Shown: positions 1 through 62,322 of the stretch, piece after piece
How positions within the stretch are numbered: the first letter of the stretch is position 1
Layout: each line of letters starts with the position of its first letter
NCBI GenBank assembly: GCA_004377185.1
Contig: SOIM01000058.1
Location: 67,828-131,827, forward strand
From: Methanomassiliicoccales archaeon
GTDB taxonomy: Archaea; Thermoplasmatota; Thermoplasmata; RBG-16-68-12; SOIM01
Length of the DNA stretch: 64,000 bases
Reading direction: 5' to 3'
The notes under the pieces: model-generated
Seen by the model: the letters and a program-made list of their open reading frames with translations, nothing else
What the model was told of the DNA's origin: nothing
The model's database searches: none
Program-made: the position numbers and the translations under genes

Positions 1-1862
1 ACCATTTCGTTGGCACACACACCGCACCCGTTGCAGAGGGCAGGGTCTATCTCGATCACATCCTCCTCCATGCGGAAAGCAGGGCAACCGAACAGGTTCA
101 TGCACAGCTGGCATTGGGTACAAATATCTTGGTCAATCTGATACTTGGCTATCTTCTTCCCTTTCTTCCTCTTCTTTCTAACGTCAAGCAATATGCACGG
201 ATGCCTTGCGACTACCACGGACACGCCTTTCGTCTTCACAGCTTTCTCCAGGGCTTTCACGAGGGCGTCTAGGTCAAGAGCGTCCACGACTGCAACGGTG
301 TCAACTCCGCAGGCCTTCGCCACATCTTCTATCAAGATCTTCCTGGTGTCCTCTCCCATCGCTGTCATTCCCACCCCGGGGTGGGTTTGGAACCCGGTCA
401 TTGCAGTGGTGGCATTGTCCAATACCAGAACATTGATGTCCGCCTTGTTGTAGACCGCGTTGAGCAGAGGGGGAATCCCTGAATGGAAGAATGTGGAATC
501 GCCGATTGTGCACACGATGCGATTATCTATGACCTTTGAAAGACCGGTTGAAATTCCAATACTGGATCCCATGCAGAAGTTGGTGTCAACGGCATTTAGA
601 GGGCTCTGGTAACCAAGTGTATAACAACCGATGTCCGAGGGTTTAACGATGCCTCCCTTCTTCTTCAACTTCAGGTTCTTTTCAACGACATTGATCGCAA
701 AGAAAGCGGTTCTATGACCGCAACCCGGACAAAGCACTGGCGGTCTTGGAGGAATGAGAGCCTGGGCCTCCTTCCAGATTCTGTTTGCCTTCCCAAAATA
801 TGATGGAGTCTTCCGACCCAGGAACTTGCTGAGACCAACGGCAACCTCTCTGGGACCCATCTCACCTGCCTTTGGAAGGATGTCCTTTCCGTGAATTTCG
901 GTATCCAAGGACAGCTCATGCGCGATGCTCCTCAGACATGTCTCCACAAATGCCTCCACTTCCTCCACTACAATTACTTTCTCATTGGCTGAAAGGAACC
1001 GCTTAATCTTCTTTCTGGGAAGCGGGTAAGGTGTTCCGATCCTAATCAGTCCGACCTTCTTGCCCAGACCCAAAGCCTTGAACGCCTCCCTGACCACATT
1101 ATGGGTCACGCCACAGGAGATCACACCGAATTCGCCATCACCCTTGGAAATGATCTTGTTGAAGGGGAGCTTCTCGACTTCTTTCTTTATCTTCTCCATT
1201 CTTTCTATGAGTTCAAGCCTCATTCTCCTGGCATTGGCCGGAAGGTTGACCCATCGTTCTGGAATGCGCTGGAACTGTCCCTTTCTCTTTGTCTTTGTCA
1301 CAGGGCCAAGAGTGATGTCCGCTGAAGAATGACCGATTCTTGTGGTTGATCTGAAGAGAACTGGCTGGCCCCATTTCTCAGAACATTCCAGGGCGGCCTT
1401 TGCCATCTCATGAGCGCCTTTAGGTCCAGGGGGTTCGAAAATCGGTAGGTAAGCTTCCCTGGCGAATAGACGGTTGTCCTGTTCGGTGTGAGAGCTGTGC
1501 ATTCCTACGTCATCCGCAGAGACAAGGACTATGCCGCCGACTGTACCCATGTAGGTGAATGCCTGGAAAGGTTCAGATGCAACGTTCACACCCACGCCTT
1601 TCATGGAAACCACAGAGCGCAGACCGCTCATGGCAGCGGAAATGGCGACTTCGGCAGCGACCTTCTCGTTCGTGGACCATTCGGCATATATCCCGTATTT
1701 CTCGGCAACAGAGAGAAGAGTGAACAGGATCTCAGAAGCAGGAGTACCTGGGTAAGAAGAAGCGACTTGTATTCCGCCTTCGATGAAACCTCTCGCGATG
1801 GCTTCGTTCCCAAGAAGAAGGGTTCTCTGACCCGACCGACCTGCCACGTTTGGGATTGCCAT
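1..1862 (-). CDS. iorA: Indolepyruvate:ferredoxin oxidoreductase alpha subunit (IorA-like 2-oxoacid:ferredoxin oxidoreductase); C-terminus runs off the window 5' edge
   Basis: Hand translation of the minus strand from ATG (complement of 1860-1862): MAIPNVAGRSGQRTLLLGNEAIARGFIEGGIQVASSYPGTPASEI... (IorA N-terminal TPP-enzyme signature). The frame is open to position 3 and encodes CTQCQLCMNLFGCPAF and CNGCGVCANEM 4Fe-4S motifs near the window edge. SD GGGGGTTAGGAGG upstream. Not in the ORF track because it is edge-truncated. Confidence 0.8.
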   Translation of the reverse strand, partial: MAIPNVAGRSGQRTLLLGNEAIARGFIEGGIQVASSYPGTPASEILFTLLSVAEKYGIYAEWSTNEKVAAEVAISAAMSGLRSVVSMKGVGVNVASEPFQAFTYMGTVGGIVLVSADDVGMHSSHTEQDNRLFAREAYLPIFEPPGPKGAHEMAKAALECSEKWGQPVLFRSTTRIGHSSADITLGPVTKTKRKGQFQRIPERWVNLPANARRMRLELIERMEKIKKEVEKLPFNKIISKGDGEFGVISCGVTHNVVREAFKALGLGKKVGLIRIGTPYPLPRKKIKRFLSANEKVIVVEEVEAFVETCLRSIAHELSLDTEIHGKDILPKAGEMGPREVAVGLSKFLGRKTPSYFGKANRIWKEAQALIPPRPPVLCPGCGHRTAFFAINVVEKNLKLKKKGGIVKPSDIGCYTLGYQSPLNAVDTNFCMGSSIGISTGLSKVIDNRIVCTIGDSTFFHSGIPPLLNAVYNKADINVLVLDNATTAMTGFQTHPGVGMTAMGEDTRKILIEDVAKACGVDTVAVVDALDLDALVKALEKAVKTKGVSVVVARHPCILLDVRKKRKKGKKIAKYQIDQDICTQCQLCMNLFGCPAFRMEEDVIEIDPALCNGCGVCANEM

Positions 1863-4723: not shown

Positions 4724-4732
4724 GCCTATCAC

Positions 4733-7566: not shown

Positions 7567-7571
7567 CTGTC

Positions 7572-8453: not shown

Positions 8454-8456
8454 CTT

Positions 8457-9236: not shown

Positions 9237-9260
9237 TTCCTCACACCTCCTTGACAATCC

Positions 9261-10574: not shown

Positions 10575-10586
10575 TTGTTCACCTCC

Positions 10587-11711
10587 TCAGAAAAGATCCT
10601 CCCCTTCAAGCATCTCCAGAAATGCCTCCACGCGTGTCTTGAACTGTCCAACTGCTACCGTCACATCCAGTTCCAAGAACAACGTTTGTATGCCATTCGA
10701 TTCCAGTGTCTTTTTTATGGAAGGAATGTCCAACTCATGAGGGTCGCAGAACTTCTGCTGTAGCAGTATCGCACCGCTCACATTCCAATCCTTTGCAATG
10801 TTGAGAATATGGGGAATCCTAGTCCTTACCTCCCAGTCCTTGCTCGGGCAGGGAGGTCTCTGCACGTACCTCTCAGCTATTGCCAGGAGCCTGTCCCCGT
10901 TCGGCTGGACATCATTCCAAAAATACCTGCTGCCAGTGCAGTGGTCATCAGCAACGATTGTCGAACCGCAGCCTTCCACCATATCTACGAATTTCGTGTC
11001 GTCATTCTCGCTGCCCAGAATCATCAGCCTTTGACCCGTTGATCTCTCCAGCTTTCTCCCCTGAAGTTCCTTGATCGTCTCCTCAAGAATGTCACTGTGG
11101 TCGTTCTTCTCGATCGTCTGACTTGAAACGGCCATATACATTGCTTCCAGACCTGTCATCGGCGGGTCCGCCTCTTTCCGAAGCTCGTAGGCCTCTCGCA
11201 TCAACCGCCTGTTCTTGTTCATCATCTCTATTCCGCGATCCAGGTCTTCGTCCGTAATCTCTTTTTCCGTCCAATCCTCAACTGCCTTCTTGAACCTCTC
11301 GAGTTCGCCTTTCAGATAGGGGACGGCCCGAGGACTCTGCACCTTGTTGGGCATGGGAAGGTAGTAGCTGAATGGAACGGGTATGTGCATCTCCCAGCTG
11401 GTGTAGGCTTGCCTGATGTGCAGGCACGATTGTGCGATCATTAAACCATCAAGATAGTCGTATCTCCCCTTCAATCCTTGAGCCAGACAGTCCCTGCAGA
11501 ACGGGCAGAACATACCGAAGATATGCGGTTCGGTTACGTCCTGCGGCTCATGACTGCCCAGAATGCGTACCGGCAACACGTCCGCGGCCAGGAGTATCTC
11601 CTCCGGCACATACGTGCAGAAATAGCCCATCACCTTTCCACCAGTCTTCTCCTTCCATTCCTTAGCGTACTCGTGTTTTGCATCGTACCATTCTTTGAAC
11701 ATCTCAATCAT
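10587..11711 (-). CDS. 2-hydroxyacyl-CoA dehydratase / benzoyl-CoA reductase catalytic subunit (HgdA/BcrC/BadD family)
   Basis: Start at internal ATG 11711 (M100 of the track ORF) with a GGAGAGGAGGATGAGG SD, overlapping the GNAT stop by ATGA. 375 aa, HgdA-like Cys-containing fold. Confidence 0.8.
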   Translation of the reverse strand: MIEMFKEWYDAKHEYAKEWKEKTGGKVMGYFCTYVPEEILLAADVLPVRILGSHEPQDVTEPHIFGMFCPFCRDCLAQGLKGRYDYLDGLMIAQSCLHIRQAYTSWEMHIPVPFSYYLPMPNKVQSPRAVPYLKGELERFKKAVEDWTEKEITDEDLDRGIEMMNKNRRLMREAYELRKEADPPMTGLEAMYMAVSSQTIEKNDHSDILEETIKELQGRKLERSTGQRLMILGSENDDTKFVDMVEGCGSTIVADDHCTGSRYFWNDVQPNGDRLLAIAERYVQRPPCPSKDWEVRTRIPHILNIAKDWNVSGAILLQQKFCDPHELDIPSIKKTLESNGIQTLFLELDVTVAVGQFKTRVEAFLEMLEGEDLF

Positions 11712-12148
11712 TTCCTCATCCTCCTCTCCAGGTTGATGAATTCGCTCCTTTCGAAGCCTATTGATTTGAAGAATGCAAGCAGGTCGCTCGAATCCCATCT
11801 CACGGCTGTGAAAATCCTGTTTATCCCCTTTGAGTTGAAACCTCTGAGCATGGCCTTTCCGAGCTTCTTGCCAATCCCTTGACCCATGTAGTTGGGATCG
11901 ATACCCACATCCACGAGCCAGCCGCTCTTGGTGACACCGAAATCCAGCGTCTTGGTCTCCCCTATGATGAAGCCCACTACCTTCTTGCTGAATGTTGCCA
12001 CAAAACATTGATTATCACTCTCGAGCAGACGAATGGCGATCTCGTGCTGCCAGAACTTGGGCACCTTCTTCTTGGTTATGGATTCTCTTATGGCTATGGT
12101 TGCCGGGATGTCTTTCTCCCTCATCCTTCTTATTTCTACAGTGCTCAT
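11708..12148 (-). CDS. GNAT-family N-acetyltransferase
   Basis: 146 aa, GNAT-family fold. GAGGTGGGGG SD. Confidence 0.8.
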   Translation of the reverse strand: MSTVEIRRMREKDIPATIAIRESITKKKVPKFWQHEIAIRLLESDNQCFVATFSKKVVGFIIGETKTLDFGVTKSGWLVDVGIDPNYMGQGIGKKLGKAMLRGFNSKGINRIFTAVRWDSSDLLAFFKSIGFERSEFINLERRMRK

Positions 12149-17546: not shown

Positions 17547-17716
17547 CCACGCTTCCTCCAAACCTTTTCCCACGTTGTCAAATGCTTTATCTATTAAAAT
17601 CTTGGCTTCTCAATTCCCATTTGAATAACTGACCATTCTCGCATATCTCGCAGCGAAATCGCTTTTCCAAAACAATAAATATCGCTGTTGGCTTACGCCC
17701 GCATGGGAGGAGTGAT

Positions 17717-25893: not shown

Positions 25894-27561
25894 TCACTTC
25901 TGTCTTGGAACCCGGTAATATTCCTCCTCGGGAGGCTTCTTCCTGAGAACGAGATATAGAACCAGGGCGGTAAGGACCGCACCCACAATTGCCACAATTA
26001 TCAAAGCCAGAGTGACACCGGGGACACCTGGAAGTCCATCAGGGGGAGGATGAGTTCTCGCCACAGTCACCGGGCCACCACTGATTGCTGTGTGTGAACT
26101 GAAGTCATCGGAGATGACTGCTTTGATGTAATAGCTTCCTTCGTTAACCAAAGAGACGTTCCAGATGTAGTAGTCGCTGACGTCATCCTCACTGACCGTG
26201 ACCAATTCCGTAAGAAGGGAAGGCGAGCCGGCTGGATAGTAGTACAGTTGGATTGTCGCATCACTGTCCGGGTCAAAGTCCACCCATTCGATCCGGAACT
26301 CATGTTCCACTGTGTCATTGTCTCCATCTGGCTCCGCAACGAATATGGATGGTGGCACATCTGAGATCAGAACGGTGAAAATGTTGCTACCAGGAACCAC
26401 TGCCGCGATATTGGTGAATCCCTCTTTCCCAAACTCAAGGTCTGCAAGAACGAAGGACTCCGCCCAACCATCAATCGGTATCTCAATTCTATCGTAGGTT
26501 GAAGTTGCGTTGTTGTAGTACAGTATGGTCAATAATTGAGGTTCACCCCAGCTACTGCAGAGTATGTCCTTGAACCCGTCCAGATCCGCGTCCCCCACGA
26601 CGAGAGAGACCGAGTTGGTGTTGTTGATGGGATTGGATGTCTGGAAAGGAAAATTCCCCGTGCCGTCATTCTCAAGGACCCATACATCGCCGTCATCTTT
26701 GCAGAGCACCACGATATCTAGAGAAGAGTTTCCGGTGACATTCTCAAGATACACATCCCACGGCGATCTGCCAACGTTATAATCTCTGTGACTGGCAAAA
26801 ACGCCTGCTCCGTTGTTGAAGAGAACGGTTACGTTGTTATCGTCCCTGTTGGCTGTTACCACATCATTAAAGCCGTCACCATTCAAATCCGCCACGAAGA
26901 CGCTGTGGGGATCCGCGCCAACCGAGTAGTTGGTGGGGAGAGAGAAAGAGCCAGAACCATCGTTGAACAGAACGGAAACCGAATTGGATTCCCCTCCGTT
27001 CGCGGTTATGATGTCGATATCATTGTTGCCGTCCTCTCCCAGATCCGCAAGGAAGACGGCCGCTGGATCGTCACCCACGGGATACTGCTGGAAGGCTGAG
27101 AAGGACCCGTCCCCGTCGTTCAAGAGAACAGACACGTAGTCGAAATACTCGCTGGGGGGACCGACGGTATCTATCTCCACGCGGGAGACCGCCAGGTCAA
27201 TGTAACCGTCCCCATCGAGGTCCGCGGCGTCAATGCTCCTCGGCTCCTGGCCGACTGAATATGTCCATTTTACGTCCTCAAAGGTTCCATTGCCGTTGTT
27301 GAGTGCGACTGAGACCGAGCTAGCGTTCCTATTGACTGTTATCAGATCGAGATGTCCATTGCCGTTGAAATCGTCAGCCACAATGTCCCAAGGAGAGCGG
27401 CCCACTTCCACGTCGACTTGGGCGATGAACAAGTCACCCCTATCTGCAAACGAAGCGCTGGGAAGAAGCACAAAGCACACGCACAGGATTAGAACGAGTA
27501 AAGATGCCCTCTTTGATATCAGTGAAAGATGTTTTGCACACCTCTTGGCTGCCAATGTCAC
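25894..27561 (-). CDS. FG-GAP/VCBS-repeat beta-propeller surface protein with signal peptide, C-terminal TM anchor and short acidic tail
   Basis: Repeated DxNGDGxxD/FG-GAP-like units (ADFNGNGHLD, ADLDGDGYID, ADLNGDGFND, GDADLDGFKD). Signal LLVLILCVCFVLLPSASFA. C-terminus LALIIVAIVGAVLTALVLYLVLRKKPPEEE. Start is GTG 27561 or TTG 27555. Confidence 0.8.
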   Translation of the reverse strand: MTLAAKRCAKHLSLISKRASLLVLILCVCFVLLPSASFADRGDLFIAQVDVEVGRSPWDIVADDFNGNGHLDLITVNRNASSVSVALNNGNGTFEDVKWTYSVGQEPRSIDAADLDGDGYIDLAVSRVEIDTVGPPSEYFDYVSVLLNDGDGSFSAFQQYPVGDDPAAVFLADLGEDGNNDIDIITANGGESNSVSVLFNDGSGSFSLPTNYSVGADPHSVFVADLNGDGFNDVVTANRDDNNVTVLFNNGAGVFASHRDYNVGRSPWDVYLENVTGNSSLDIVVLCKDDGDVWVLENDGTGNFPFQTSNPINNTNSVSLVVGDADLDGFKDILCSSWGEPQLLTILYYNNATSTYDRIEIPIDGWAESFVLADLEFGKEGFTNIAAVVPGSNIFTVLISDVPPSIFVAEPDGDNDTVEHEFRIEWVDFDPDSDATIQLYYYPAGSPSLLTELVTVSEDDVSDYYIWNVSLVNEGSYYIKAVISDDFSSHTAISGGPVTVARTHPPPDGLPGVPGVTLALIIVAIVGAVLTALVLYLVLRKKPPEEEYYRVPRQK

Positions 27562-29478: not shown

Positions 29479-31584
29479 ATGCGAAGCAGACTAGATCCTA
29501 TCTTCAATCCGAAGTCCATTGCTATCATCGGCGCTTCCAGAAAGAAGGGCAAGATCGGGAGGGAACTACTTCACAACCTGATCAGGTACGAGTTCCAGGG
29601 GAAGCTCTTTCCGATAAACCCACACGCTGAGGAAGTGCATTCGATTCCTGCCTATCCTTCAATCTTGGACGTCCCAGATGAGGTTGACCTCGCTGTCATT
29701 ATCGTTCCCGCTGAGCATACGATAGAGGTGATGAAAGACTGCGGGAAGAAGGGGGTTCGGGGTGCCATAGTAATCACCGCAGGCTTCAAGGAAACGGGTG
29801 AGAAAGGTGCGCGTCTTGAGAACAAACTGCATGAGGTCTGCAAGAAATATGGAATCTCGATGATCGGCCCCAACTGCATGGGTGTCATAAACACGAACGA
29901 GAACGTGAAGATGGATGCCACCTTCGCTCCTTCCCTTCCACTAACTGGAAGGATTTCATTCATGTCCCAATCCGGTGCACTGGGTGCCGCCATTCTGGAT
30001 CATGCGGATAACATAAAAGTAGGCTTCGCCAAGTTCGTGAGCCTGGGAAACAAAACGGACGTTTCGGGTAACGATCTGCTGATGGCTTGGGAGGATGACA
30101 GTGACACTGACATTATTCTGATGTACATAGAGAGCTTCGGAAACCCAAGGAACTTCGTACGGATCGCGAGGGACGTGACCCGGAAGAAACCGATAATTGC
30201 CTTGAAATCGGGGCGGACGGAGGCAGGAGCTGCCGCGGCCGCAAGCCATACTGGAGCACTCGCAGGACTGGATGTTGCCACCGACGCGCTCTTCGAGCAG
30301 TGCGGGGTCATCAGGGTCGGCTCGATAGAAGAGCTCTTCGACATCGCGATTGCATTTGCAAATCAACCGCTTCCCAAGGGTAACAGGATCGCCATTCTCA
30401 CCAATGCCGGCGGACCAGCGATAATGACTGTGGATGCTCTCGTGGGCGCAGGACTGAAACTGTCAGAGTTCAGCGACAGAACGAAGAGAAAGCTCCGAGA
30501 GAACTTGCCCGAGGAGGCCAGTATCAAGAACCCGGTTGACATGATTGCCGCGGCCGGACCCAAAGAATACGAGATGGCGATGGAGGCCATTCTGGCAGAC
30601 AGACGAGTGGACGCATTGGTAACGATCTTCGTACCACCCATCGTGACCAAGGAGATCGAGATTGCCCACGCCATCGTGAAGGCAAGCAAGAAGTACAAGA
30701 AACCAGTCTTGTCATGTTTCCTGGGAAGGACTGAAGACTCTCCTGGCTTCGTCTACCTGACTGAGAACGATATTCCTTCATATCTTTTCCCTGAGAGTGC
30801 CGTGAAGTCCCTCTCGGCAATGGTCGCCTACCGCACGTACCTGGAAAGAGAGAAGGGGAAAGTGAGAAGCTACAAGGTCGATAGGAAAACCGCCAGGAAG
30901 GTATTCCGAAAAACGGCTCGCGAGAAGAGAACGTGGTTAAGAGAATTGGAAGCCTTTGATGTCCTGAGGTCCTACGGTCTTGAGGTCGTTGAAACGGAAG
31001 TCGGAAAGAACCTGGAAGAAGTGAAGGATTTTGCAAAGAAGATTGGTTATCCAGTCGTTCTGAAGGCTTGCGGGGAAGGAATCATACACAAGACGGAGAT
31101 TGGGGCGGTCGTGCTGAATATCGAGGATGAGGAGGAACTCATCAACAGCTTCAAACAAATGATATCCAACGTGAAGAGGGAGGGGTTCGAAGTGGACTGC
31201 TTCCTTGTGCAAGAGATGGTCAAGGGCGGAAAGGAGGTCATCCTGGGAATGAAATATGACGAACACTACGGACCCATCGTCATGTTCGGTACTGGAGGCA
31301 TCTATGTGGAATACCTGAAGGACGTGGCTTTCAGGGTAGCTCCCCTGACCGATGTTGATGCAACCAGGATGGTCAGATCCATAAGGTCGTACCCGCTTCT
31401 AGAAGGTGTGAGAGGGGAGGAACCTTCAGACGTTGAGAGCCTGATCGAGAGCATCCAGAGACTGTCACAGATGGCAGTTGAGTTCGAAGAAATCGGACAG
31501 ATGGACATAAACCCAATCATGTTGTTCGAGAAAGGGAAGGGCTACAAGATTGTGGACGTGAGAATCGCCATAAGAGAGACCTGA
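29479..31584 (+). CDS. ADP-forming acyl-/acetyl-CoA synthetase (NDP-forming, fused alpha-beta)
   Basis: 701 aa. N-terminal CoA-binding IAIIGAS, phospho-His region SQSGALG/GPNCMG, C-terminal ATP-grasp. No SD, possibly leaderless with a TATA-like ttgataaa about 28 bp upstream. Confidence 0.9.
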   Translation: MRSRLDPIFNPKSIAIIGASRKKGKIGRELLHNLIRYEFQGKLFPINPHAEEVHSIPAYPSILDVPDEVDLAVIIVPAEHTIEVMKDCGKKGVRGAIVITAGFKETGEKGARLENKLHEVCKKYGISMIGPNCMGVINTNENVKMDATFAPSLPLTGRISFMSQSGALGAAILDHADNIKVGFAKFVSLGNKTDVSGNDLLMAWEDDSDTDIILMYIESFGNPRNFVRIARDVTRKKPIIALKSGRTEAGAAAAASHTGALAGLDVATDALFEQCGVIRVGSIEELFDIAIAFANQPLPKGNRIAILTNAGGPAIMTVDALVGAGLKLSEFSDRTKRKLRENLPEEASIKNPVDMIAAAGPKEYEMAMEAILADRRVDALVTIFVPPIVTKEIEIAHAIVKASKKYKKPVLSCFLGRTEDSPGFVYLTENDIPSYLFPESAVKSLSAMVAYRTYLEREKGKVRSYKVDRKTARKVFRKTAREKRTWLRELEAFDVLRSYGLEVVETEVGKNLEEVKDFAKKIGYPVVLKACGEGIIHKTEIGAVVLNIEDEEELINSFKQMISNVKREGFEVDCFLVQEMVKGGKEVILGMKYDEHYGPIVMFGTGGIYVEYLKDVAFRVAPLTDVDATRMVRSIRSYPLLEGVRGEEPSDVESLIESIQRLSQMAVEFEEIGQMDINPIMLFEKGKGYKIVDVRIAIRET

Positions 31585-32795: not shown

Positions 32796-33065
32796 ATGGA
32801 AATCACCCTCAAATTTCTGAAGCCTTTGAATGATGTTGTCGGTCAGAACGAGTTGTCGGTTGAAGTGGAAAATGGTACGGTTGAGTCCCTGTTGGCGGAC
32901 CTGTTGAACGATCATCCGAAATTGGCAGAGGAGATACTTGACGAGAAGGGTGAGTTGGACTACAGGGTGAATGTGATACTCAACGACAAACCCCTGAACG
33001 ATCTGGACGTGAACCTGAACGATGGGGACCTTTTGACATTGTTCATACCAATAAGTGGTGGGTAG
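32796..33065 (+). CDS. MoaD/ThiS-family ubiquitin-like small protein (C-terminal GG) adjacent to AOR
   Basis: 89 aa ending ...LFIPISGG. Beta-grasp-like length. Sits immediately 5' of the AOR gene. Confidence 0.7.
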   Translation: MEITLKFLKPLNDVVGQNELSVEVENGTVESLLADLLNDHPKLAEEILDEKGELDYRVNVILNDKPLNDLDVNLNDGDLLTLFIPISGG

Positions 33066-33105
33066 ACCCCCGAGCTCTCGACGGTCAGAGGAGAGGAATC
33101 CAATC

Positions 33106-34944
33106 ATGCAGGAAAGGAAGCTTGCAGTTGTCGATCTTTCAAGAGGGAAGGTGACGACAAGAACCATTCCAAAATCCTGGCGAAAAGGTTTTCTCGGTGG
33201 GAGGGGCATCAATTCCTATTTGCTCTATAATCTGATAGAAAAGGGTACGGACCCATTCTCCCCAAGGAATGCTCTTGTGCTTGGCGTTGGTCTTCTGGGG
33301 GGCACGCTGGCGCCATCATCATGCAGATTCAACGCATCCGCCCTTTCTCCCGAGACGGGCCTGCTTGGTGATTCGAACTGCGGAGGGTTCTTTGGACCCG
33401 AACTCAGGTATGCTGGCTTTGATCATCTCATTTTGAGAGGGAGGGCGAAGAGACCCTCGTACGTGAACATACAGGATGGAGAGATCGAAATCCGGGACGG
33501 GAGAGAGTACTGGGGGATGGATACATACGATGTGCAGAAGGCGTTGAGGAAAGACCTCGGAGATGTCGAATCGCTTGTCTGCGGTGTTGCTGGAGAGAAC
33601 AAGGTTCGGTTCGCATGCCTGCGCAATGGTGTGAAGAACGCGGCTGGAAGATGTGGCTTGGGAGCGGTGATGGGGTCAAAGAACGTCAAGGCCGTGGTGG
33701 CATCCGGGACGGACGGAATAAAGGTCGAACATCCGCAGGAGATGTTGGAACTGGTACAGGACATCAAGAACTACCTCATGGACTCCAAGATAACCCCCAT
33801 CCTGGGCAGTATGGGAACCCCACTTCTTTACGAGGTGAGCAATGCCATAGGTGCCATAAGAACCAAGAACAGCCAGCTGAACGCCTGGTCCGATTCCCTG
33901 AATGCGGAGGAATTGGAGAAATACGTCGAGAAGATGATTTCATGCTCCTCATGCTTCATGCACTGCAGGCACAGGAACACGTTCAATGGAGAAGGTCCCG
34001 AATACACGGCGGTCGGATTACTTGGCGCAAACTTGGGGTTGGAGGACTACCCTGACGTCATCAAGCTGAACAACACTTGCAACGAACTGGGATTGGACAT
34101 ATCATCTTCAGGATCAATACTCAGTTGGGCCTTCGAGCTGTACGAAAGAGGGATAATCGACAAGAAGTTGACCGGGCAGGAGTTGAGGTTCGGTGATTCT
34201 GAGCTTGCAGATGAACTGCTTCACAAGATCGCTGGGAGAGAAGGTTTCGGAGACGTATTGGCTGAGAGCAGTAGGGCGGTGAAGAAATTCGGACCCGAGT
34301 CCAAGGACTATCTCATTGCCGTCAAGGGCCTTCCACAGAGCGATCCGCACGACGTGAGATATATCAAGGCGTTCGCGCTGGGAATAGCGACCGCCAGCAG
34401 AGGAGCTGACCACCTCAGAAGCAGGCCCACCCTGGAGATATTCTTCAGATTGCCATTGGAGGTGAAAGAGAAGATATACGGAAAAGGAATCACCGCTGAC
34501 CCAACCTCGTACGAAGGTAAAGAAAGAGCGGTCTGTTTCTCGGACAACATCTTCGCAACCATAGATTCTGTAGGTATCTGCAAGTTCATCTGTCACGGTT
34601 TCAACAGCCCCCATTTCCTGGGTTATGAGCATTTCTCAAAGCTTTTGCATGCGGTAACAGGGATGCGATACCGAGAGAAGGAACTGGAGAACATCGGCAA
34701 GAGGATAATCGATACCGAGAGGATGTTCAACTTCAAGCACGGAATGACAGCGAAGGACGATACCCTCCCGAAAAGATATTTCGATGACCCAATGACAATG
34801 AAGGTCTCGAAGGGACACAAAATCGACAGAAAGAGCTTCCAGAAGATGAAGAAACGGTACTACAAGCTCAGGAATTGGGACGAGAAGGGGAGGGTGAAGA
34901 AGCAACGGGTCAAAGAAATCGAATCCTACGGGGGGCTGCAGTGA
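33106..34944 (+). CDS. aor: Tungsten-type aldehyde:ferredoxin oxidoreductase (AOR family)
   Basis: Start ATG 33106 with GGAGAGGAA SD. 612 aa with AOR N-terminal domain (LAVVDLSRGKV...GGRG) and pterin/4Fe-4S-binding region (CSSCFMHCRHR). Confidence 0.9.
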   Translation: MQERKLAVVDLSRGKVTTRTIPKSWRKGFLGGRGINSYLLYNLIEKGTDPFSPRNALVLGVGLLGGTLAPSSCRFNASALSPETGLLGDSNCGGFFGPELRYAGFDHLILRGRAKRPSYVNIQDGEIEIRDGREYWGMDTYDVQKALRKDLGDVESLVCGVAGENKVRFACLRNGVKNAAGRCGLGAVMGSKNVKAVVASGTDGIKVEHPQEMLELVQDIKNYLMDSKITPILGSMGTPLLYEVSNAIGAIRTKNSQLNAWSDSLNAEELEKYVEKMISCSSCFMHCRHRNTFNGEGPEYTAVGLLGANLGLEDYPDVIKLNNTCNELGLDISSSGSILSWAFELYERGIIDKKLTGQELRFGDSELADELLHKIAGREGFGDVLAESSRAVKKFGPESKDYLIAVKGLPQSDPHDVRYIKAFALGIATASRGADHLRSRPTLEIFFRLPLEVKEKIYGKGITADPTSYEGKERAVCFSDNIFATIDSVGICKFICHGFNSPHFLGYEHFSKLLHAVTGMRYREKELENIGKRIIDTERMFNFKHGMTAKDDTLPKRYFDDPMTMKVSKGHKIDRKSFQKMKKRYYKLRNWDEKGRVKKQRVKEIESYGGLQ

Positions 34945-55166: not shown

Positions 55167-56387
55167 TTATTGCTCTCTTGGTTCTTCTTCCTCTTTCGAC
55201 TCTTCCTCTGGCAACTCTTCCTCTGGCAACTCTTCCTCTGGCAACTCTTCCTCTGGAAGTCTACCTCTCCCTCGTGCGGCTGCCGCAACAGCTGCGATGA
55301 TGATTACTATTATGATTATGGCAATGATTATCCAGAGCCAGGGGAGCTCTTCGGTCGGTTCTCCGTCAGCAGCAGACACTGTGATCTCATGAGGTGAGGT
55401 TGTGGGATTCGTTGCGGGATGAGTTGCGGTATTAGTACCATCCGTTGCAGAGATGTAGTACTCGACACCATCCGTGGTCACATCATCTGACGGGATGGTT
55501 CTAGTGTAAGTGTCATCTGTTCTGGTCATCGTGACAGCCGTGAAGTCAGCGTCACCTGTCTTTCGGTAGTACAGAGTTGCACTTTCCATGCCCAAACCAT
55601 CGTCTGTGATCGTGGCAGTAATGGTGATTGACTGTTCAGCTGTCGCGGTTGTCACAGCCGTGTGAGTTATCGTTGGAGCATCTGTATCTTCAGAAATCGC
55701 AATCGTGGAGTTAACAGTCCGATTGTCATTGTCGTTTGTATCATTTGCCCAGATAAAGTAAGTTACATCACCAGCAGAAGATTGCGCAGGGATGGTATAG
55801 TTGTAATTGCCTGCGACCAAGACCATCGACTCATTAGCGGTGATGCCGGCCACATCTGTGTAGGTCAAATTCACTTCATTGACTGCTACGTTGTCTGACA
55901 CTTGAGCAGAAATTGTCATTTCTCGACCTACCCAAGCAGCAACTACAGGCGTATGAGTTATCTCAGGAGATTCTGTATCTTCTGAGATTACGATCTCAAA
56001 GTCAATGGTTCTGTTCCAATTGTCGCTTGTATCTGTATCATTTGCCGAAATATTGTAGAAGACACTGCCAGCAGAAGATTGTGCAGGGATTATAAAGCTA
56101 TAGTTGTCGTCCCAGTTAGCCATCGTCACATTGTCCCATGCACCGCTGACTTCTGTGTAGTTCAACCACACTTCATACACGTCATCAACATCCGTCACTT
56201 TGGCAGTAATGTTGATGTCGATACCTACTGTTCCGTCAGTTACTGGGGTATGATCTATCTCGGGACCAAAGGCATCCGCCATCACCGTTGGCATATTCAC
56301 AAGCAAGGCACCAAAGATCATAGCTGTAACAGCAATGATTGATGCCCATCGCACACTATGAGCCGAGAATTGTCGTTTGGCTTTCAT
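55167..56387 (-). CDS. Cell-surface protein with three ~95-aa HTP/ANDT-signature Ig-like repeats, C-terminal TM anchor and (EELPE)n acidic tail
   Basis: Start ATG 56387 (GGAGG SD) giving signal MKAKRQFSAHSVRWASIIAVTAMIFGALLV. Repeats each contain HTPV...NY(N/S)(Y/F)(T/I)IPAQSSAG.V.Y.I.AND(T). Tail WLWIIIAIIIIVIIIAAVAAAARGRGRLPEEELPEEELPEEELPEEE. Confidence 0.75.
   Translation of the reverse strand: MKAKRQFSAHSVRWASIIAVTAMIFGALLVNMPTVMADAFGPEIDHTPVTDGTVGIDINITAKVTDVDDVYEVWLNYTEVSGAWDNVTMANWDDNYSFIIPAQSSAGSVFYNISANDTDTSDNWNRTIDFEIVISEDTESPEITHTPVVAAWVGREMTISAQVSDNVAVNEVNLTYTDVAGITANESMVLVAGNYNYTIPAQSSAGDVTYFIWANDTNDNDNRTVNSTIAISEDTDAPTITHTAVTTATAEQSITITATITDDGLGMESATLYYRKTGDADFTAVTMTRTDDTYTRTIPSDDVTTDGVEYYISATDGTNTATHPATNPTTSPHEITVSAADGEPTEELPWLWIIIAIIIIVIIIAAVAAAARGRGRLPEEELPEEELPEEELPEEESKEEEEPREQ
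55201..55260. repeat. 15-bp tandem coding repeat x4 (actcttcctctggca) encoding the (LPEEE)n tail
   Basis: Four perfect or near-perfect 15-nt units read from the sequence. Confidence 0.8.
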
Positions 56388-56523
56388 ACGTTTTCCTCCA
56401 AACCTATTGACATTTCCGCCGTTGCATTCTTGCAGTCCTATTAATGTCTTTCGGTCAAGCGTTTGCATTCAAGATATAACACAGTTGTACTGGATATAAT
56501 GCTGTTATAATATATTGGAAATG

Positions 56524-57045
56524 TCAAAAGTGCCAGGATTTGTTCCACTTATATTCATCCGCTCCTTCGAAAGTCAGTTCGTTCTCGCGTTTGGAAAGGT
56601 TCCTGCAGCTTCTTGGCACGAGCAATCTCTCGCCGTTCAATTCCAGAATTACAAACAAATTATCCCTGACTATTGGCATCATCCGCGTAGATCTCTCAGG
56701 TTCCACAAACACTCTGATGTCCTTGTGGCGGGGGCGGATTGCGATAAGGCCCACTCCTTCCTTCCGAAACCAGTATCTGTTCCGGTAGGCTTGGGAAGCA
56801 TGTCCGAATGGCATTGCCACGAAACAGTAATCCGCACCGAGCTGATACGCCACTGCTTGTCTCAAGGCTTCCCTCCAGTTCCTTATCTTTATCTCCACCG
56901 CCACGACCTCGTCCCCCTTCACCGCGACCAGGTCCACCCATCGGGTAATCATTCTGACCTCTGCGTAGGCCCGGTAGCCATGGCCTCGGAAGAAGGTTTT
57001 CAGACCCGCCTTCAAATCTTCCTCGATGACATTGCAGCTTCCCAT
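56524..57045 (-). CDS. PD-(D/E)xK nuclease-fold protein (Hjc/restriction-endonuclease-like core) with an unknown C-terminal half
   Basis: VDLVAVKGDEVVAVEIKIRNW matches the D...(D/E)xK core preceded by an E-containing helix (EEDLKAGL). 173 aa. Confidence 0.5.
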   Translation of the reverse strand: MGSCNVIEEDLKAGLKTFFRGHGYRAYAEVRMITRWVDLVAVKGDEVVAVEIKIRNWREALRQAVAYQLGADYCFVAMPFGHASQAYRNRYWFRKEGVGLIAIRPRHKDIRVFVEPERSTRMMPIVRDNLFVILELNGERLLVPRSCRNLSKRENELTFEGADEYKWNKSWHF

Positions 57046-57211
57046 CTTCCTTCGACGGGCTACTGGGCTTGTGTAATAAGAACCTCGACGGGAGAGATGG
57101 GTGAATGTATTCCCGATGTCAGCTGCGTTATCGAGTTCGTCTTGAGAATGGCCAGATAGACCAAAAAGACTTAAGTACGCACCATTGACTACCGCTTTAC
57201 AAAGGGGTAAG

Positions 57212-60160
57212 ATGGAATCGAGAAGAGTTAACAGCTCAATCCTCTTTGCAATCGTCCTTGTGTTGATAGTTCAGGTTGGGGCAAGCAGTTTGGAACCAAG
57301 TGAAGAGAACCCAATTGAGAGGACTGCCATTGTTCTCACCAGAACCTTGACGTTTGATATTGAACTTTCGGAGCTTGAACTGTTGAAGATGGGCAACTAT
57401 GACTACATTACTTCGGAAGGTTTGCGACGCTTCACGCGCCCTGGGGAGCCACTACTTCCAATGAAAACGATCGTCACTGAGTTCGACAAGAATGCGGATA
57501 TCCTTGATGTTGCCCTGGCGTACGAAGAGCGTGTTCCAATAGAGGGGACGTTCGACATAGCGCCCACACCAAAGCCTGTGACCTGGGACAGTTGGGGAAT
57601 CGGTGAGCCCGAGAAGAATCCTGAAGTCTACGCGCTTGATGACTATTTCCCTGGAGAGGTTTTTTCATACAGGATCGGAGAAGACAATTACAAGAAGTAT
57701 CTCTACGTCCACATCTACCCGGTCCAATACATCCCTAGCAGGGGGAGAATCGAAATAATCACCGATATCGCTCTGGACATCACCTACCAGAATTCTTCGG
57801 ATATGGAACCGCTGGCAGATGACCTGAGTGCAGAATGTTTAATCATCACCCCTCAAAGCCTCTATCCAGAAGCGAAACAGCTTGCCGATTTCCATGAGGC
57901 CTCTCTCGGCGTGCCAACTTCGGTTGTGAACACCACATGGATCGAAGTTAACTACCTTGAGGCTCCGGACCCGCCCTACATTGGGTATTCGGACAGTGGA
58001 CTAAACGGTTGGAATCAGATCGTTGGGTACGACTACAGCCTGGCCAAGAAGACGGTGAACTACCTGGATGACACGAGTGCGCATCCGAATCTCGAGTATG
58101 TGCTCCTGTATGGAAACGCCCAGATGGTTCCTCCGAGTTTCTACTGGTACGATTCCTGGGTGGGAGGATTTATGCCCTATCAGGGTTGGATACCTACGGA
58201 CTTCTTCTACAGCTCCCCCGACTATGACCTCACGCCTGACTATGCGGTTGGCAGACTGCCTGTGGACGGAAGCACGAGAGCCCAAACCCTGAATCAGAAG
58301 ATCGTGAACTGGTATGCGAATCTCTTGCCCAGTTGGTTCAACAAAGCCGTGGTTGCGGGTGGAACGCCCTTCAACACTCCATTCTACGTGGGGGAACTCA
58401 TAACCCAAGATGCTGTCAACAAGGGATACTTTGACGGGTTCGACATAACGAAGATGTTCCTTTCGGACTGGAAGTTCGACCGCGTGAATGTGCTGAACGC
58501 GCTGTCGGGCGGATATGGAGTCATGTATGAAATCGGTCACGGGTTGGGTGACGTGATGATTGTGAACGACAGCGGCATGCCCGGGGAGATGATCACTACC
58601 ACGGACATCATGAGCCTGTCCCCGAATAGTAACGTACCAGTTGTTGTTTCCATCGCCTGCATCAACGGTGCTTTTGACAATACCATCATGGCAAACAAAC
58701 CGTTCACGTCATCAAATTCCATAGGAGAAAGCCTGCTCTTCTCCCCTGCTGGAGCTATAGCCTACGTCGGTAGTTCCAGGGTGAGCACAGGTATGTCTAT
58801 CGGGATTCTTGAGGAGGGAGAAGTGAAGATAACTGGCGAGACTACCATGGTCAGCTTGCTCACGAGTTTCTGGAGAGCGCGCTACGAGGGTGCTGGAACC
58901 CTGGGATCCACGTCCATGGATGCTATGACCTACTTCTCTTCTGGCGAAGATATGGGCAGTATTGAGAACAAGAGGGCCCTTTTCGAATACGTTCTCCTGG
59001 GCAACCCTGTCCTCCCGTTCACGCATCCACAACAGGACAAATACAGCGTGCCCAGAACAGAAATCCTGGATGTGAGGGGTTACGAATACCGCGGTAATCC
59101 CATGTTGATTGAGGGTCAGGTCCCTGTCGTTGGGTTGAACAGACCGAATGCGGTGGATGTGGTCGCGGATTCCCCGAGCGTAAATTTCAAGATTGTCGAT
59201 TCGGAGGCCGTCGTAACACTGGAATACGGTTCGAACACAACAACGAACAACCAGACACGGTATGACTTCACACCCTCAAGGACTTCCTTGCTTTTGCTGA
59301 GGGCGGAGGGAGAGGACGGCAAGGAAGGCTGGCAGTACATGGTCTCGAAGTTCGTACCCAACTTTCCCAAAGCCCCGGTCCTGAGGCTTGCAAGACTGAG
59401 CGGACCGAATGATGAAGATGTTCTGATAGACTGGTACAAGTCTACTGATGAGGGCGATCCGCGCGGCACACTGAACTACGAAGTGTACCGGTCTTTGAAC
59501 TCATTATCCGGTCCATATAGCAAGATCGCAGACGTCCCAGCTACTGGACAATCAAACTACAACTACATAGATGCAGGTCGAGGAGATGGCGATACAGACA
59601 ATTTCTACTATGTGCAATCGGTGAACTTCACAGCACAGAGCGCAAGGAGCTACTACGCAGCGAAGAAAGCAGGGTTGTTCTCAGCAGGCTGGTGGTTGAT
59701 ATCGCTACCACTCGTACAGTATGACAAGACCACAAGTGCCGTCTTCAGGACACTGGACTTCGAAACGGTTGTGACTTATGTGGCGTCCGACCCCATTGAT
59801 CCGTGGAAGAGGTATGACTCCTTCAAACCCTACGCGGACCTGGATTATGTGGATCACACAATGGGCCTTTGGGTCAATGTCTCCTCGTCCGACTATCTAA
59901 CGATAGCTGGATTGGTGCCGAAAAGCACTCCGATCGTTTTGCGTCCGGGGTGGAATCTGGTTGGTTATCCCACTTTTGATGGGAGAAATGTGACTACCGA
60001 GTTCGCAGGGATTAGCTATGACAGAATCGAATTCTACGAGCCCACATCGCCCCCCTATTTGCTGCATTGCTTGTTACCGACCGAGGATATGTTTTCAGGC
60101 GGCGGATACTGGATCAAGGTGAGCTCTCAGCAAGTCTGGACGGTATACAACCCAGCTTAG
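57212..60160 (+). CDS. Secreted gingipain-like cysteine peptidase (family C25, clan CD) with Fn3-like and C-terminal sorting/anchor-like domains
   Basis: ATG 57212 with signal peptide ILFAIVLVLIVQVGASS. YVLLYGNAQMVPPSFYW, PDYAVGRLPVDG, catalytic dyad context EIGHGLGD and VVVSIACINGAF. 982 aa from ATG 57212 (991-aa track ORF). Confidence 0.8.
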   Translation: MESRRVNSSILFAIVLVLIVQVGASSLEPSEENPIERTAIVLTRTLTFDIELSELELLKMGNYDYITSEGLRRFTRPGEPLLPMKTIVTEFDKNADILDVALAYEERVPIEGTFDIAPTPKPVTWDSWGIGEPEKNPEVYALDDYFPGEVFSYRIGEDNYKKYLYVHIYPVQYIPSRGRIEIITDIALDITYQNSSDMEPLADDLSAECLIITPQSLYPEAKQLADFHEASLGVPTSVVNTTWIEVNYLEAPDPPYIGYSDSGLNGWNQIVGYDYSLAKKTVNYLDDTSAHPNLEYVLLYGNAQMVPPSFYWYDSWVGGFMPYQGWIPTDFFYSSPDYDLTPDYAVGRLPVDGSTRAQTLNQKIVNWYANLLPSWFNKAVVAGGTPFNTPFYVGELITQDAVNKGYFDGFDITKMFLSDWKFDRVNVLNALSGGYGVMYEIGHGLGDVMIVNDSGMPGEMITTTDIMSLSPNSNVPVVVSIACINGAFDNTIMANKPFTSSNSIGESLLFSPAGAIAYVGSSRVSTGMSIGILEEGEVKITGETTMVSLLTSFWRARYEGAGTLGSTSMDAMTYFSSGEDMGSIENKRALFEYVLLGNPVLPFTHPQQDKYSVPRTEILDVRGYEYRGNPMLIEGQVPVVGLNRPNAVDVVADSPSVNFKIVDSEAVVTLEYGSNTTTNNQTRYDFTPSRTSLLLLRAEGEDGKEGWQYMVSKFVPNFPKAPVLRLARLSGPNDEDVLIDWYKSTDEGDPRGTLNYEVYRSLNSLSGPYSKIADVPATGQSNYNYIDAGRGDGDTDNFYYVQSVNFTAQSARSYYAAKKAGLFSAGWWLISLPLVQYDKTTSAVFRTLDFETVVTYVASDPIDPWKRYDSFKPYADLDYVDHTMGLWVNVSSSDYLTIAGLVPKSTPIVLRPGWNLVGYPTFDGRNVTTEFAGISYDRIEFYEPTSPPYLLHCLLPTEDMFSGGGYWIKVSSQQVWTVYNPA

Positions 60161-62322
60161 TTCGTCAGAACCCAATCGTAGTCTTCTGACACGTGAATCC
60201 AATAACCTTCGCCAGCGGTCATCAGGTCGCCTTCACCCAACCTTGTCAGATACCAAGGAGAATCCATCGGTTCGAAACTCTCGATCGTCTGGTAGTGCAC
60301 CGCCAGAGTGTCAGAGACTGTTCTGTCGATGAAAGATGGATAGCCCACGAAGTTCCATCCAGTTACAAGATGTATTGTGGTTTCGTGGGGGACCAACCCG
60401 GCAACGGTGAAATGGCTCTCGGAGATGACCTCCACCCACAGCGCCATCGTATCGTCGACATACTCAAGATCCGAGTATGGTTTCCTGGTATCGAAAGTCC
60501 TCCAGTTGTGCCTCTTACCAGCCATCGCATCATAGTAGATGATTCTCACGTAGGAAACGGTCTGGAAGACTGTAGTGACATGATTATCTGACACCTGCAA
60601 AGGCATCGACATTAGCACCATTCCAGAGTCCATATGTTTGGCGAACTTGGATGCCTGCTGCTCTGCCAACGTCTCTTGAGCCGCGTCATCCACCGCACCT
60701 ACACAGTAGAAGTATGTGTTCGGGTCTCCATGACCCGCGGCAGTATCAACCCAGCTGTCCGAACTAGGAGAAACGGTCGCGAAGAGGGTGTATCCCAGGC
60801 AATCTGGATCATATACTGTTCCTCTGTAGATGTTGTACGCATCCACGTCATTGTCCCCAGCCCCATCATCACCTGACAGCTCCCAGCTCAGCTCGACATC
60901 CTCATTCATCGGACCGGAAAGAACTGCATCGATCAGACGAGGTGGAGCAGGATAACCATCAATGATTTCCGCATAAGTGGTGTCGTTGTCACTCGCTCCG
61001 TCATTGTCAGTGACTTTGAGTGTCACATCATATATTCCGGCGGCCAAGTACGTATGAGACACAGTCACTCCATATGCCTTTCCCGAACCATCCCCGAAGT
61101 CCCACTCATACTCAACTATGCTCCCATCGGGGTCGTACGAGCCTTTGCCGTCGAAATCTATCGTCCAACCCTTCTTACCGAAGTAAGGACCACCGGCATC
61201 TGCCACAGGAGGTTCGTTATATTCCCCGCATCCTCCAATCGGATGCATGAACGGGTACTGATCAATGCTGTTATTGTCCACGTAGTATGGCGTGTCCCCT
61301 ATGCCATCACCATCCGAATCAGTTCCGTTATAGTCGTCCCAGTAGTTGCCTTCAGAACCGTCGTCGAAGTAGTTAGCCCAGTTGTCGGCTGCGTTGTCGA
61401 AATTGGATATGAAATCGTTGTGATGAACGTTGATGTTATAGGAGTTGTAGAGATTCAGACCCACACCATTTTCGGATAGTACGTTGCACCCCACTGTGTC
61501 GTACATTGCGCCCTGCAGAGAGATACCCGAGCCGGTACCGCCCGGATTCTGCAGTCCATTTCCAAATATTGTGTTGTTCCAGTAGGTGCTATAGGAGACC
61601 TTTGTCCCCCAGTCGCTTCCGTAGGAAACACCGACAAACATATTGTTGAAGATTCTGGAATTCTGTATCCACACATTGGAGTAGTTGCCAATGATGCCTT
61701 TGTTGTTGTATGAAATTTCACTGTCATCAATAATGCTACCCGAAGAGGTGCCAAGGTCTAATCCAACGTCATTGGACATAATCTGACTGCGATAAAGATA
61801 GACTTGAGCATCATAGTCCAGAGCCATACCGCAGTCCCTGTTATTCTGGAATACACTGTTTTCGATGCTGATATTTCGCCTATAGGCTGTGAGTGTCACT
61901 CCACACAAAGCGTTGGACACCATGGTGTGCTTCATACTGCCAAATCCCGTCCTCTCTATGACTATTCCCTTCCAATAATGTCCAGTTGGGTCCGGGGGTT
62001 GACCGTTGGAGAAAACCACCATTCCATACTCTGACCCTTTCGTCAAAAGAAAACCACTTACGTTGAAGTAGTACGAGCCGTTGAACAGCACGCTCACTCC
62101 AGCTTCGATAGTAAGAGTGGCGTTGAAGTCAACGAAGGTATCTCCTACGATCCAATAGGGGCTGCCATTCGCCGTCCAGGTAGTGTCCGTAGTAATATGT
62201 CCACTCACTTCCGTCCCGGCCACAACGTTCTGGTTCAAATGCAGAACCATTCCGAACATCGAAGCGAGTACGGTAAGAACAGCGATGCTCACAATCTCTA
62301 TCTTTCTATCTGCCCTGCCCAT
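60157..62322 (-). CDS. Secreted right-handed parallel beta-helix (pectate-lyase/NosD-like) repeat protein with PKD-like, Fn3-like and the same C-terminal domain as the C25 peptidase
   Basis: Signal/TM IEIVSIAVLTVLASMFGMVL. Repeated beta-helix rungs (NNRDCGMALDY..., SNDVGLDLG..., YNNKGIIGN..., NNMFVGVSYG..., NGVGLNLYNSYNINVHHNDF). PKD-like WDFGDGS. C-terminal 150 aa alignable to the peptidase C-terminus. Confidence 0.75.
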   Translation of the reverse strand: MGRADRKIEIVSIAVLTVLASMFGMVLHLNQNVVAGTEVSGHITTDTTWTANGSPYWIVGDTFVDFNATLTIEAGVSVLFNGSYYFNVSGFLLTKGSEYGMVVFSNGQPPDPTGHYWKGIVIERTGFGSMKHTMVSNALCGVTLTAYRRNISIENSVFQNNRDCGMALDYDAQVYLYRSQIMSNDVGLDLGTSSGSIIDDSEISYNNKGIIGNYSNVWIQNSRIFNNMFVGVSYGSDWGTKVSYSTYWNNTIFGNGLQNPGGTGSGISLQGAMYDTVGCNVLSENGVGLNLYNSYNINVHHNDFISNFDNAADNWANYFDDGSEGNYWDDYNGTDSDGDGIGDTPYYVDNNSIDQYPFMHPIGGCGEYNEPPVADAGGPYFGKKGWTIDFDGKGSYDPDGSIVEYEWDFGDGSGKAYGVTVSHTYLAAGIYDVTLKVTDNDGASDNDTTYAEIIDGYPAPPRLIDAVLSGPMNEDVELSWELSGDDGAGDNDVDAYNIYRGTVYDPDCLGYTLFATVSPSSDSWVDTAAGHGDPNTYFYCVGAVDDAAQETLAEQQASKFAKHMDSGMVLMSMPLQVSDNHVTTVFQTVSYVRIIYYDAMAGKRHNWRTFDTRKPYSDLEYVDDTMALWVEVISESHFTVAGLVPHETTIHLVTGWNFVGYPSFIDRTVSDTLAVHYQTIESFEPMDSPWYLTRLGEGDLMTAGEGYWIHVSEDYDWVLTN

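Follow-up and report, generated by a model that had tools for sequence, protein, structure and literature searches.

The 64,000-nucleotide stretch of DNA analysed here (contig SOIM01000058.1 of a Methanomassiliicoccales archaeon, positions 67,828 to 131,827 of the forward strand; in the following, the window) raises the question of what role an archaeon has for a gene that resembles those of the gingipains, the C25-family cysteine peptidases of Porphyromonas gingivalis. An original prediction had read the gene as an extracellular peptidase of this family (clan CD). We consider it probable, at roughly 0.72, that the product is a secreted clan-CD endopeptidase of family C25, made as a zymogen, which degrades extracellular proteins and is localised by a lineage-specific C-terminal module. 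The core of this finding is correct but not novel, since C25 enzymes have already been published and annotated for sediment archaea. The new feature of the gene, and its sole unusual one, is the C-terminal module, which is absent from the domain catalogues searched.

The open reading frame listing of the window gives one intact frame on the plus strand, from a TTG at 57185 to 60160. An in-frame ATG at 57212, which is preceded by a Shine-Dalgarno-like GGGGT within AAAGGGGTAAG, yields a product of 982 amino acids (aa), with a TAG stop codon at 60158-60160, and orthologues of 981-985 aa (56-97% identity) match this length. The sequence motifs quoted in the original prediction are all present in the product, namely YVLLYGN (aa 296-302), VPPSFYW (aa 306-312), PDYAVGRLP (aa 342-350), EIGHGLGD (aa 440-447, nucleotides 58529-58552) and VVVSIACINGAF (aa 477-488, nucleotides 58640-58675). 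The gene and its parts, all on the plus strand, are arranged as follows, with the support for each in brackets:

57212..60160, plus strand: complete gene for a pre-pro C25 (gingipain-family) cysteine peptidase (open reading frame, PF01364 match, orthologue lengths)
57212..57283, plus strand: putative signal peptide, aa 1-24, with an RR n-region, an h-region from I10 to V22 and VGA/S at the cleavage site (sole hydrophobic window; modelled helix 8-22)
57332..57793, plus strand: gingipain-type β-sandwich pro-domain, aa 41-194 (PF08126, family profile, Foldseek match to 4ief)
57794..57835, plus strand: linker from pro-domain to catalytic domain, aa 195-208, SSDMEPLADDLSAE (predicted local distance difference test score, pLDDT, <50 at 196-204; length varies across the family)
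57836..59014, plus strand: caspase-like α/β catalytic domain, aa 209-601 (PF01364 at aa 210-601; pLDDT mostly >90; Foldseek match to Kgp 6i9a_A)
58538..58540, plus strand: codon of the catalytic His443, in EIGH443GLGD (invariant in 32/32 sequences; aligned to RgpB His211)
58658..58660, plus strand: codon of the catalytic Cys483, in SIAC483INGAFD (invariant in 32/32 sequences; aligned to RgpB Cys244)
59039..59356, plus strand: Ig-like β-sandwich, aa 610-715, at the position of the gingipain immunoglobulin superfamily (IgSF) domain (model strands 615-713; tblastn; fold matches to Kgp catalytic and IgSF domains)
59357..59686, plus strand: FN3 domain, aa 716-825, the first half of the C-terminal module
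59687..60157, plus strand: uncatalogued terminal β domain, aa 826-982, of two tandem units of ~80 aa (hhalign repeat; no database match; widespread at C-termini)

Judged from sequence and modelled fold, the product is a bona fide member of family C25 with its active-site residues intact. The Pfam profile for Peptidase_C25 (PF01364) is matched over positions 2-372 of 374, with 159.6 bits (gathering cutoff 23) and E=1.7e-46. A single-sequence phmmer search of the PDB gave no match at E<=1, and RgpB and Kgp came within reach only with a family profile. The family alignment comprises the query and 31 archaeal and bacterial homologues of 23-64% identity, and its profile retrieves the RgpB pro-domain (4ief_A, E=6.8e-8), mature RgpB (1cvr_A, E=1.3e-4), the Kgp pro-domain (5mun, E=5e-4) and, weakly, PorU (6za2, E=0.0033). 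The AlphaFold2 model computed from the same alignment has a mean pLDDT of 82.3, with most of the catalytic core above 90, and is composed of a signal helix (8-22), a β-sandwich (41-194), a disordered linker (196-204), an α/β domain (209-600), an Ig-like domain (615-713) and two more β domains. The best Foldseek matches of this model in the PDB are the Kgp catalytic and IgSF domains (6i9a_A, E=1.4e-16, TMt 0.58), followed by 4rbm (E=3.7e-15) and, in third place, by PorU (6za2, E=4e-12), and the pro-domains of RgpB and Kgp are matched as well (4ief and 5mun, E=3e-8 to 7e-7, TMt 0.62-0.64). The family assignment of the original prediction is thereby borne out by the Pfam match, the profile alignment to RgpB and the fold match to Kgp.

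The same holds for the proposed His/Cys dyad. The profile alignment to 1cvr_A pairs the His of “eigHGsG” with residue 211 and the Cys of “siACmnGaF” with residue 244, the catalytic His211 and Cys244 of RgpB. Both His443 and Cys483 are invariant in all 32 sequences of the family alignment together with their flanking motifs HG.G and S.ACxNG.FD, as are G347-R348, D330, D337, D489 and R523, and the invariance of dyad and flanking motifs at 23-64% identity points to purifying selection on the active site. The Ig-like region behind the catalytic domain is kept in ~25 distant C25 loci found by tblastn. A catalytically dead surface adhesin, as which a protein with several Ig, FN3 and other β domains might also be read, is extremely improbable, since dyad and flanking motifs do not vary among the 32 homologues and the pro-domain is retained. 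Neither a loss of the catalytic residues nor a clustering with non-peptidase adhesins, the two outcomes that would have spoken against the peptidase, was found.

At the N-terminus, aa 4-30 form the sole hydrophobic stretch of the protein and fit a signal peptide (MESRRVNSSILFAIVLVLIVQVGA, followed by SS), in line with the signal peptide that had been predicted. The AlphaFold2 model places a helix at aa 8-22, followed by a disordered segment (21-38), and a hydrophobicity scan shows no C-terminal transmembrane (TM) segment in the protein. The segment would direct the export of the C25 protein; it may also be an uncleaved signal anchor, or serve export by the twin-arginine (Tat) route. After export, the pro-domain (aa 41-194) would keep the catalytic domain (aa 209-601) latent until a cut is made in the flexible linker (aa 195-208), which, by analogy with gingipains, is the candidate region for activation cleavage. 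A check for a propeptide cleavage site, which had been proposed together with the prediction, thus leads to a gingipain-type pro-domain, found by Pfam, family profile and Foldseek alike, and to this linker as the putative site. The mature enzyme, consisting of the catalytic and Ig-like domains, would then cut extracellular proteins to peptides, which would be imported and fermented, and the C-terminal module most likely retains this and other secreted proteins at the cell surface or targets them to it.

Several points weigh against this reading or parts of it. The match to Propeptide_C25 (PF08126) is barely above its cutoff (22.2 bits against 22), and the signal-peptide cleavage site was placed by eye, without a predictor. 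The linker contains no Arg or Lys between aa 195 and 208, and its LADD sequence is kept only among close orthologues in the family alignment. In gingipains an acidic S1 residue confers Arg/Lys specificity (Asp163 in RgpB, Asp516 in Kgp). When RgpB is aligned to the family profile, Asp163 is part of an insertion; the closest conserved acidic residue is Glu395, which is kept in 31 of the 32 sequences and is aligned to RgpB Glu161, two positions from Asp163. Furthermore, the region of the pro-domain loop, which carries the inhibitory Arg/Lys in gingipains, is hypervariable in the C25 family. With the S1 residue unalignable, the loop hypervariable and the linker non-basic, Arg/Lys specificity and autocatalytic activation are unsupported, and an assignment of the P1 specificity from loop or linker was rejected for the latter two reasons. 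The sequence thus does not allow Arg/Lys specificity to be assigned to the C25 protein. Literature searches turned up no biochemically characterised archaeal C25 enzyme, so that activity and specificity are both read from homology. Finally, no structural match was seen for the terminal domain in searches whose lists were dominated by FN3 hits.

The order of parts is the one known from RgpB and Kgp (MEROPS C25, PF01364 and PF08126; 1CVR, 4IEF, 4RBM, 6I9A, 5MUN), with a signal peptide, a β-sandwich pro-domain, a caspase-like His...Cys domain and an Ig-like domain following one another. By contrast, the structure-based identity is as low as ~12-16%, and the C-terminal parts differ. The C25 protein lacks the C-terminal domain (CTD) of the type IX secretion system (T9SS) and the haemagglutinin/adhesin domains of the gingipains, and ends in the FN3 domain and the duplicated β domain instead. 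The archaeal host is not known to possess a T9SS or an outer membrane.

The C-terminal module is defined here as the FN3 domain together with the internally duplicated β domain of ~155 aa, ~270 aa in total. It became apparent as a similarity between aa 684-980 of the C25 protein and the C-terminus of the product of the convergent neighbouring gene (35% identity, E=1e-42):

60157..62322, minus strand: 721-aa secreted NosD/β-helix and PKD protein, convergent to the C25 gene (Pfam NosD, Beta_helix, PKD)
60160-60975, minus strand: module of this neighbour, aa 450-721 (35% identity to C25 aa 684-980)

Within the window these two genes are the only ones to carry the module, and a local hidden Markov model of it gives scores of 302 bits (C25 protein) and 354 bits (β-helix neighbour). 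The two units of ~80 aa in the terminal domain, GWWLISLPL...GLWVNV and GWNLVGYPT...GYWIKV, are homologous to each other (hhalign probability 96.7%, E=3.6e-10), and an AlphaFold2 model of the module alone (aa 716-982) reaches a pLDDT of 96.5 and a predicted TM-score (pTM) of 0.91. For the terminal domain, nothing credible was found in Pfam (E<=10), in NCBIfam (E<=1) or in a profile search of the PDB (E<=10), and literature searches on the module returned nothing relevant. Aromatic residues abound at the conserved positions of the module (W150, W172, W199, Y251, W252 and W261 in module numbering). The module contains neither a lipobox nor a TM segment, and no conserved cleavage motif is seen ahead of it in the consensus.

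A word-indexed search with the C-terminal 266 aa gave two matches, which suggested a module private to the lineage; this was overturned by running a four-sequence profile exhaustively with HMMER against 1.84 billion cluster representatives. The HMMER run returned 8,630 matches at E<=1e-3, 4,197 at E<=1e-10 and 1,119 at E<=1e-30, of which the last class is relied upon here, as the weak tail may contain generic FN3 domains. All source names of the module proteins are Thermoplasmata, Methanomassiliicoccales or “Methanobacteriota” archaeon, and several paralogues occur per genome, even within 20 kb. Properties were counted on 278 module-bearing proteins that were retrieved. The module ends no more than 6 aa from the C-terminus in 264 of 276 copies, and a signal-like hydrophobic segment lies at the N-terminus of 178 of the 229 proteins that start with Met; two proteins have a C-terminal TM segment. 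FN3 and terminal domain occur together in 169 proteins, and the terminal domain only in 100. The proteins that carry the module are diverse. NosD/β-helix repeats are present in 34 of the 55 proteins scanned, and other passengers include PKD, fn3, Big_5, PQQ/WD40 propellers, FG-GAP/VCBS and sialidase-like BNR domains, as well as enzymes (metallophosphatase, M14 carboxypeptidase, subtilase S8, clostripain C11, C25 and agmatine deiminase-like). Some proteins of ~175-220 aa are hardly more than the terminal duplicated domain (in L071, P0301, P0308, P0313 and P0328), and a number of them may be contig fragments. The L071 protein has a complete called gene of its own (8247-8906, plus strand), located downstream of a gene for a signal peptidase I (S26) and shortly before a β-helix gene that carries the module.

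From its position, its distribution and the lack of a TM segment, the module probably anchors or sorts secreted proteins at the cell surface. In this respect it is analogous to the T9SS CTD (PF18962), SLH domains, dockerins and the PGF-CTERM/archaeosortase signals, which likewise occupy the extreme C-terminus of unrelated secreted passengers, occur in several paralogues per genome and are distributed within one lineage. The module is much larger than these (~270 aa, with a terminal domain of ~155 aa), has no TM helix, unlike PGF-CTERM, and shows no profile similarity to the T9SS CTD. The bacterial C25 homologues P0071, P0090, P0092 and P0101 end in a T9SS CTD; in the C25 protein of the window the last 370 aa give no Pfam hit of any sort, Por_Secre_tail (PF18962/TIGR04183) included. 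A diverged T9SS CTD or a FlgD_ig-like sorting domain was rejected as the identity of the repeat unit in the terminal domain, as hhalign gave a probability of <1% against the CTDs of five bacterial homologues, a comparison that relies on a shallow, five-sequence profile.

An alternative for the module, compatible with the peptidase itself, is that it binds a substrate or polymer in the manner of a carbohydrate-binding module (CBM) or an adhesin, so as to dock released enzymes on detrital particles. Its all-β fold and its aromatic-rich conserved positions are typical of binding modules, and the frequent β-helix, PKD, FG-GAP and sialidase-like passengers as well as the lack of TM segment and lipobox would be in keeping with such a function. 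However, binding modules usually vary in position and copy number, whereas this one is almost always single and C-terminal, and its passengers include enzymes with unrelated substrates, such as peptidases, metallophosphatase, agmatine deiminase-like proteins and carboxypeptidase. A single module at the extreme C-terminus of unrelated enzymes fits generic localisation better than substrate binding, so that the binding function is unlikely, even if worth keeping in mind. A wider proposal, for which we would claim no more than a tentative standing, is that the module may be a Thermoplasmata-wide sorting, anchoring or assembly domain that defines a set of surface enzymes and physically couples the C25 protein to its β-helix partner. 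Such a set may comprise C25, C11 and S8 peptidases, M14 carboxypeptidases, β-helix and sialidase-like proteins and phosphoesterases, and the module may then be the archaeal functional counterpart of the T9SS CTD, the SLH domain or the dockerin.

The relation between the C25 gene and its neighbour is close. The stop codons of the two convergent genes overlap (TTAG, 60157-60160), which leaves no intergenic room for terminators, and the product of the β-helix/PKD gene has a signal peptide of its own. The gene pair is conserved in the contigs L069 and L070; the overlap of the stop codons is kept in L070 (10700-10703), and in L069 the two genes are 3 nucleotides apart. Gene order is kept beyond the pair in these two contigs (82% and 57% identity, the lower value being that of L069), with the 173-aa open reading frame, C25, the convergent β-helix/PKD gene, AlaX-like, ETFαβ and FixC. 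In many of the Thermoplasmata relatives, by contrast, peptidase, Ig-like domain and NosD/β-helix form one polypeptide (P0015, P0017, P0019 and others; L004 8001-9980), and the β-helix of P0019 is homologous to that of the neighbour (26% identity, E=2e-5). Since the two parts are fused in relatives and split but adjacent here, a functional coupling is suggested, in which peptidase and β-helix protein would act together at one location.

This pairing is also compatible with a different role, namely that the C25 protein is a processing enzyme or sortase like PorU, the C-terminal signal peptidase/sortase of the T9SS (NF033707; 6ZA2). It would then act on the module of other secreted proteins such as the β-helix neighbour, by cutting the module or by attaching proteins via it, and would carry the module itself, as PorU carries a T9SS CTD. 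PorU belongs to family C25 and shares with the C25 protein both the fold and a tag that is common to other secreted proteins; it is the third-best fold match and a weak match of the family profile (see above). Furthermore, a module-bearing gene is the close and conserved partner of the C25 gene, and the module is tag-like in its C-terminal position, its many passengers and its several paralogues per genome. However, the C25 protein reaches 40.2 bits with the PorU model NF033707 (cutoff 420), matching only aa 193-243, and is closer to Kgp and RgpB, the pro-domains of which also match better than PorU, with a gingipain-type pro-domain of its own. The full module is limited to a small C25 clade (P0001-P0011 and P0280), whereas module proteins are spread across Thermoplasmata and Methanomassiliicoccales, most of them with no known module-bearing C25 partner. 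The varied C-termini of the relatives, most of which are fused to NosD/β-helix, CARDB, ThuA-like or other domains in place of the module, or end in a T9SS CTD, are those of ordinary secreted hydrolases, and a cleavage motif, as noted, is not conserved ahead of the module. A processing role is therefore quite improbable, and the degradative peptidase remains the preferred reading.

The archaeal origin of the gene, which was part of the original prediction, is confirmed by its relatives. Where homologues of the peptidase part have a source name, this is mostly “Thermoplasmata/Thermoplasmatales archaeon”. Several of them, 36-40% identical over that part, already go under “C25 family cysteine peptidase”, and a C-terminal fragment of 58% identity has the source name Thermoplasmata archaeon. 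The 64-kb window contains no tRNA gene and no other marker from which the taxonomy could be read directly; the assignment is taken from the names attached to the homologues. A scan of the GTDB genomes with the single protein found no relative. The alignment-based scan found 68 loci, the closest at 43% identity. Among the archaea these belong to Thermoplasmata (with the best match), Aenigmarchaeota, Bathyarchaeia, Nitrososphaeria, Desulfurococcales, Archaeoglobaceae and Halobacteria metagenome-assembled genomes (MAGs), and among the bacteria to Planctomycetota, Coatesbacteria, Cloacimonadota and others.

C25 peptidases of sediment archaea have been described before. For sediments with Thermoprofundales and Bathyarchaeota, the genes are reported to be both abundant and expressed (PMC6461988, PMC6752024, PMC9585477). 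In Thermoprofundales MAGs several are expressed at high transcripts per million (TPM) and predicted to be extracellular (PMC6461988), and in White Oak River sediments C25 accounts for 41-45% of the peptidase genes with a signal peptide and was linked to fast hydrolysis of Arg substrates (PMC6752024). A further article summarises the same picture for Thermoprofundales in general, with reference to Lloyd et al. 2013 (PMC9585477). The C25 protein of the window shares family, organism class and proposed role in detrital protein degradation with the annotated C25 peptidases of Thermoplasmata/Thermoprofundales and Bathyarchaeia MAGs, and adds, with dyad, pro-domain and putative signal peptide intact, a further well-supported case to the published picture in which sediment Thermoplasmata secrete such enzymes. 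It differs from them in that its clade has the FN3 and duplicated-domain module, with the β-helix in a separate convergent gene. The published picture of detrital feeding through archaeal C25 enzymes rests on gene annotation and bulk enzyme assays of sediment, and a full-length, confidently modelled C25 protein encoded beside genes for the fermentation of peptides and aromatic acids is a reasonable candidate for expression. The module is a more useful lead than the peptidase, and the suggested coupling of C25 to the β-helix protein is a lead as well. If the module is a generic anchor or sorting domain, it would provide a sequence handle to predict which Thermoplasmata enzymes remain on the cell and which are released, a distinction that bears on how extracellular enzyme economics in sediments are modelled and on the biology of the archaeal cell envelope.

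The metabolic context named in the original prediction, IorA, AOR and ADP-forming acyl-CoA synthetase, is present in the window:

3..1862, minus strand: IorA (TIGR03336, 730 bits against a cutoff of 651)
29479..31584: ADP-forming acyl-CoA synthetase (TIGR02717, 582 bits against a cutoff of 567)
33055..34944: AOR-like protein

IorA and the synthetase lie above their cutoffs, and acyl-CoA dehydrogenases, a thiolase, an enoyl-CoA hydratase and electron transfer flavoprotein (ETF) are encoded in addition. The genes for IorA, the AOR-like protein, the synthetase, acyl-CoA dehydrogenase and ETF would fit the proposed fermentation of the imported peptides. The window further contains, at 7279-12008 on the minus strand, matches above cutoff to BzdN (507 bits, cutoff 454) and BzdO (676 bits, cutoff 449), NCBIfam equivalogs of the bzd-type class I benzoyl-CoA reductase, which are followed by two BcrAD/BzdQ-like activase ATPases (7572-8453 and 8457-9257) and adjoined by an Fe-S flavoenzyme of the OYE/FadH type (2468-4459) and an 832-aa Fe-S/flavin oxidoreductase (4733-7231). 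By these profile matches, the region is a predicted module for ATP-dependent reduction of aromatic rings in a probable Thermoplasmata archaeon.

Around the C25 gene, an open reading frame of 173 aa lies divergently upstream (56524-57045, minus strand), with one of the same length at the same position in L069 and L070; its one Pfam match is weak and Hjc-like (PD-(D/E)XK nuclease, E=0.018). In L069 (57% identity), genes for a 1,519-aa SBP_bac_5 (Opp-type) binding protein with Big_1 domains and for a BPD_transp_1 permease (945-6604, minus strand) are located ~1.4 kb upstream of C25, with three small open reading frames between, and would fit peptide uptake; in the window this position is occupied by a PocR/PAS sensor and an ABC-2 exporter. 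Three more surface proteins or probable surface proteins of the window, all on the minus strand, lack the shared module. The one at 55167-56468 has 433 aa with a signal peptide, three Ig-like repeats of ~90 aa, a C-terminal TM helix and a cytoplasmic (EELP)n tail that stems from 5.6 copies of a 15-bp tandem repeat (55186-55268). A probable surface protein of 1,691 aa (12498-17573) contains DUF4785_3rd and DUF4625, and another of 555 aa (25894-27561) is made of FG-GAP repeats, which occur together with the module in proteins of other Thermoplasmata.

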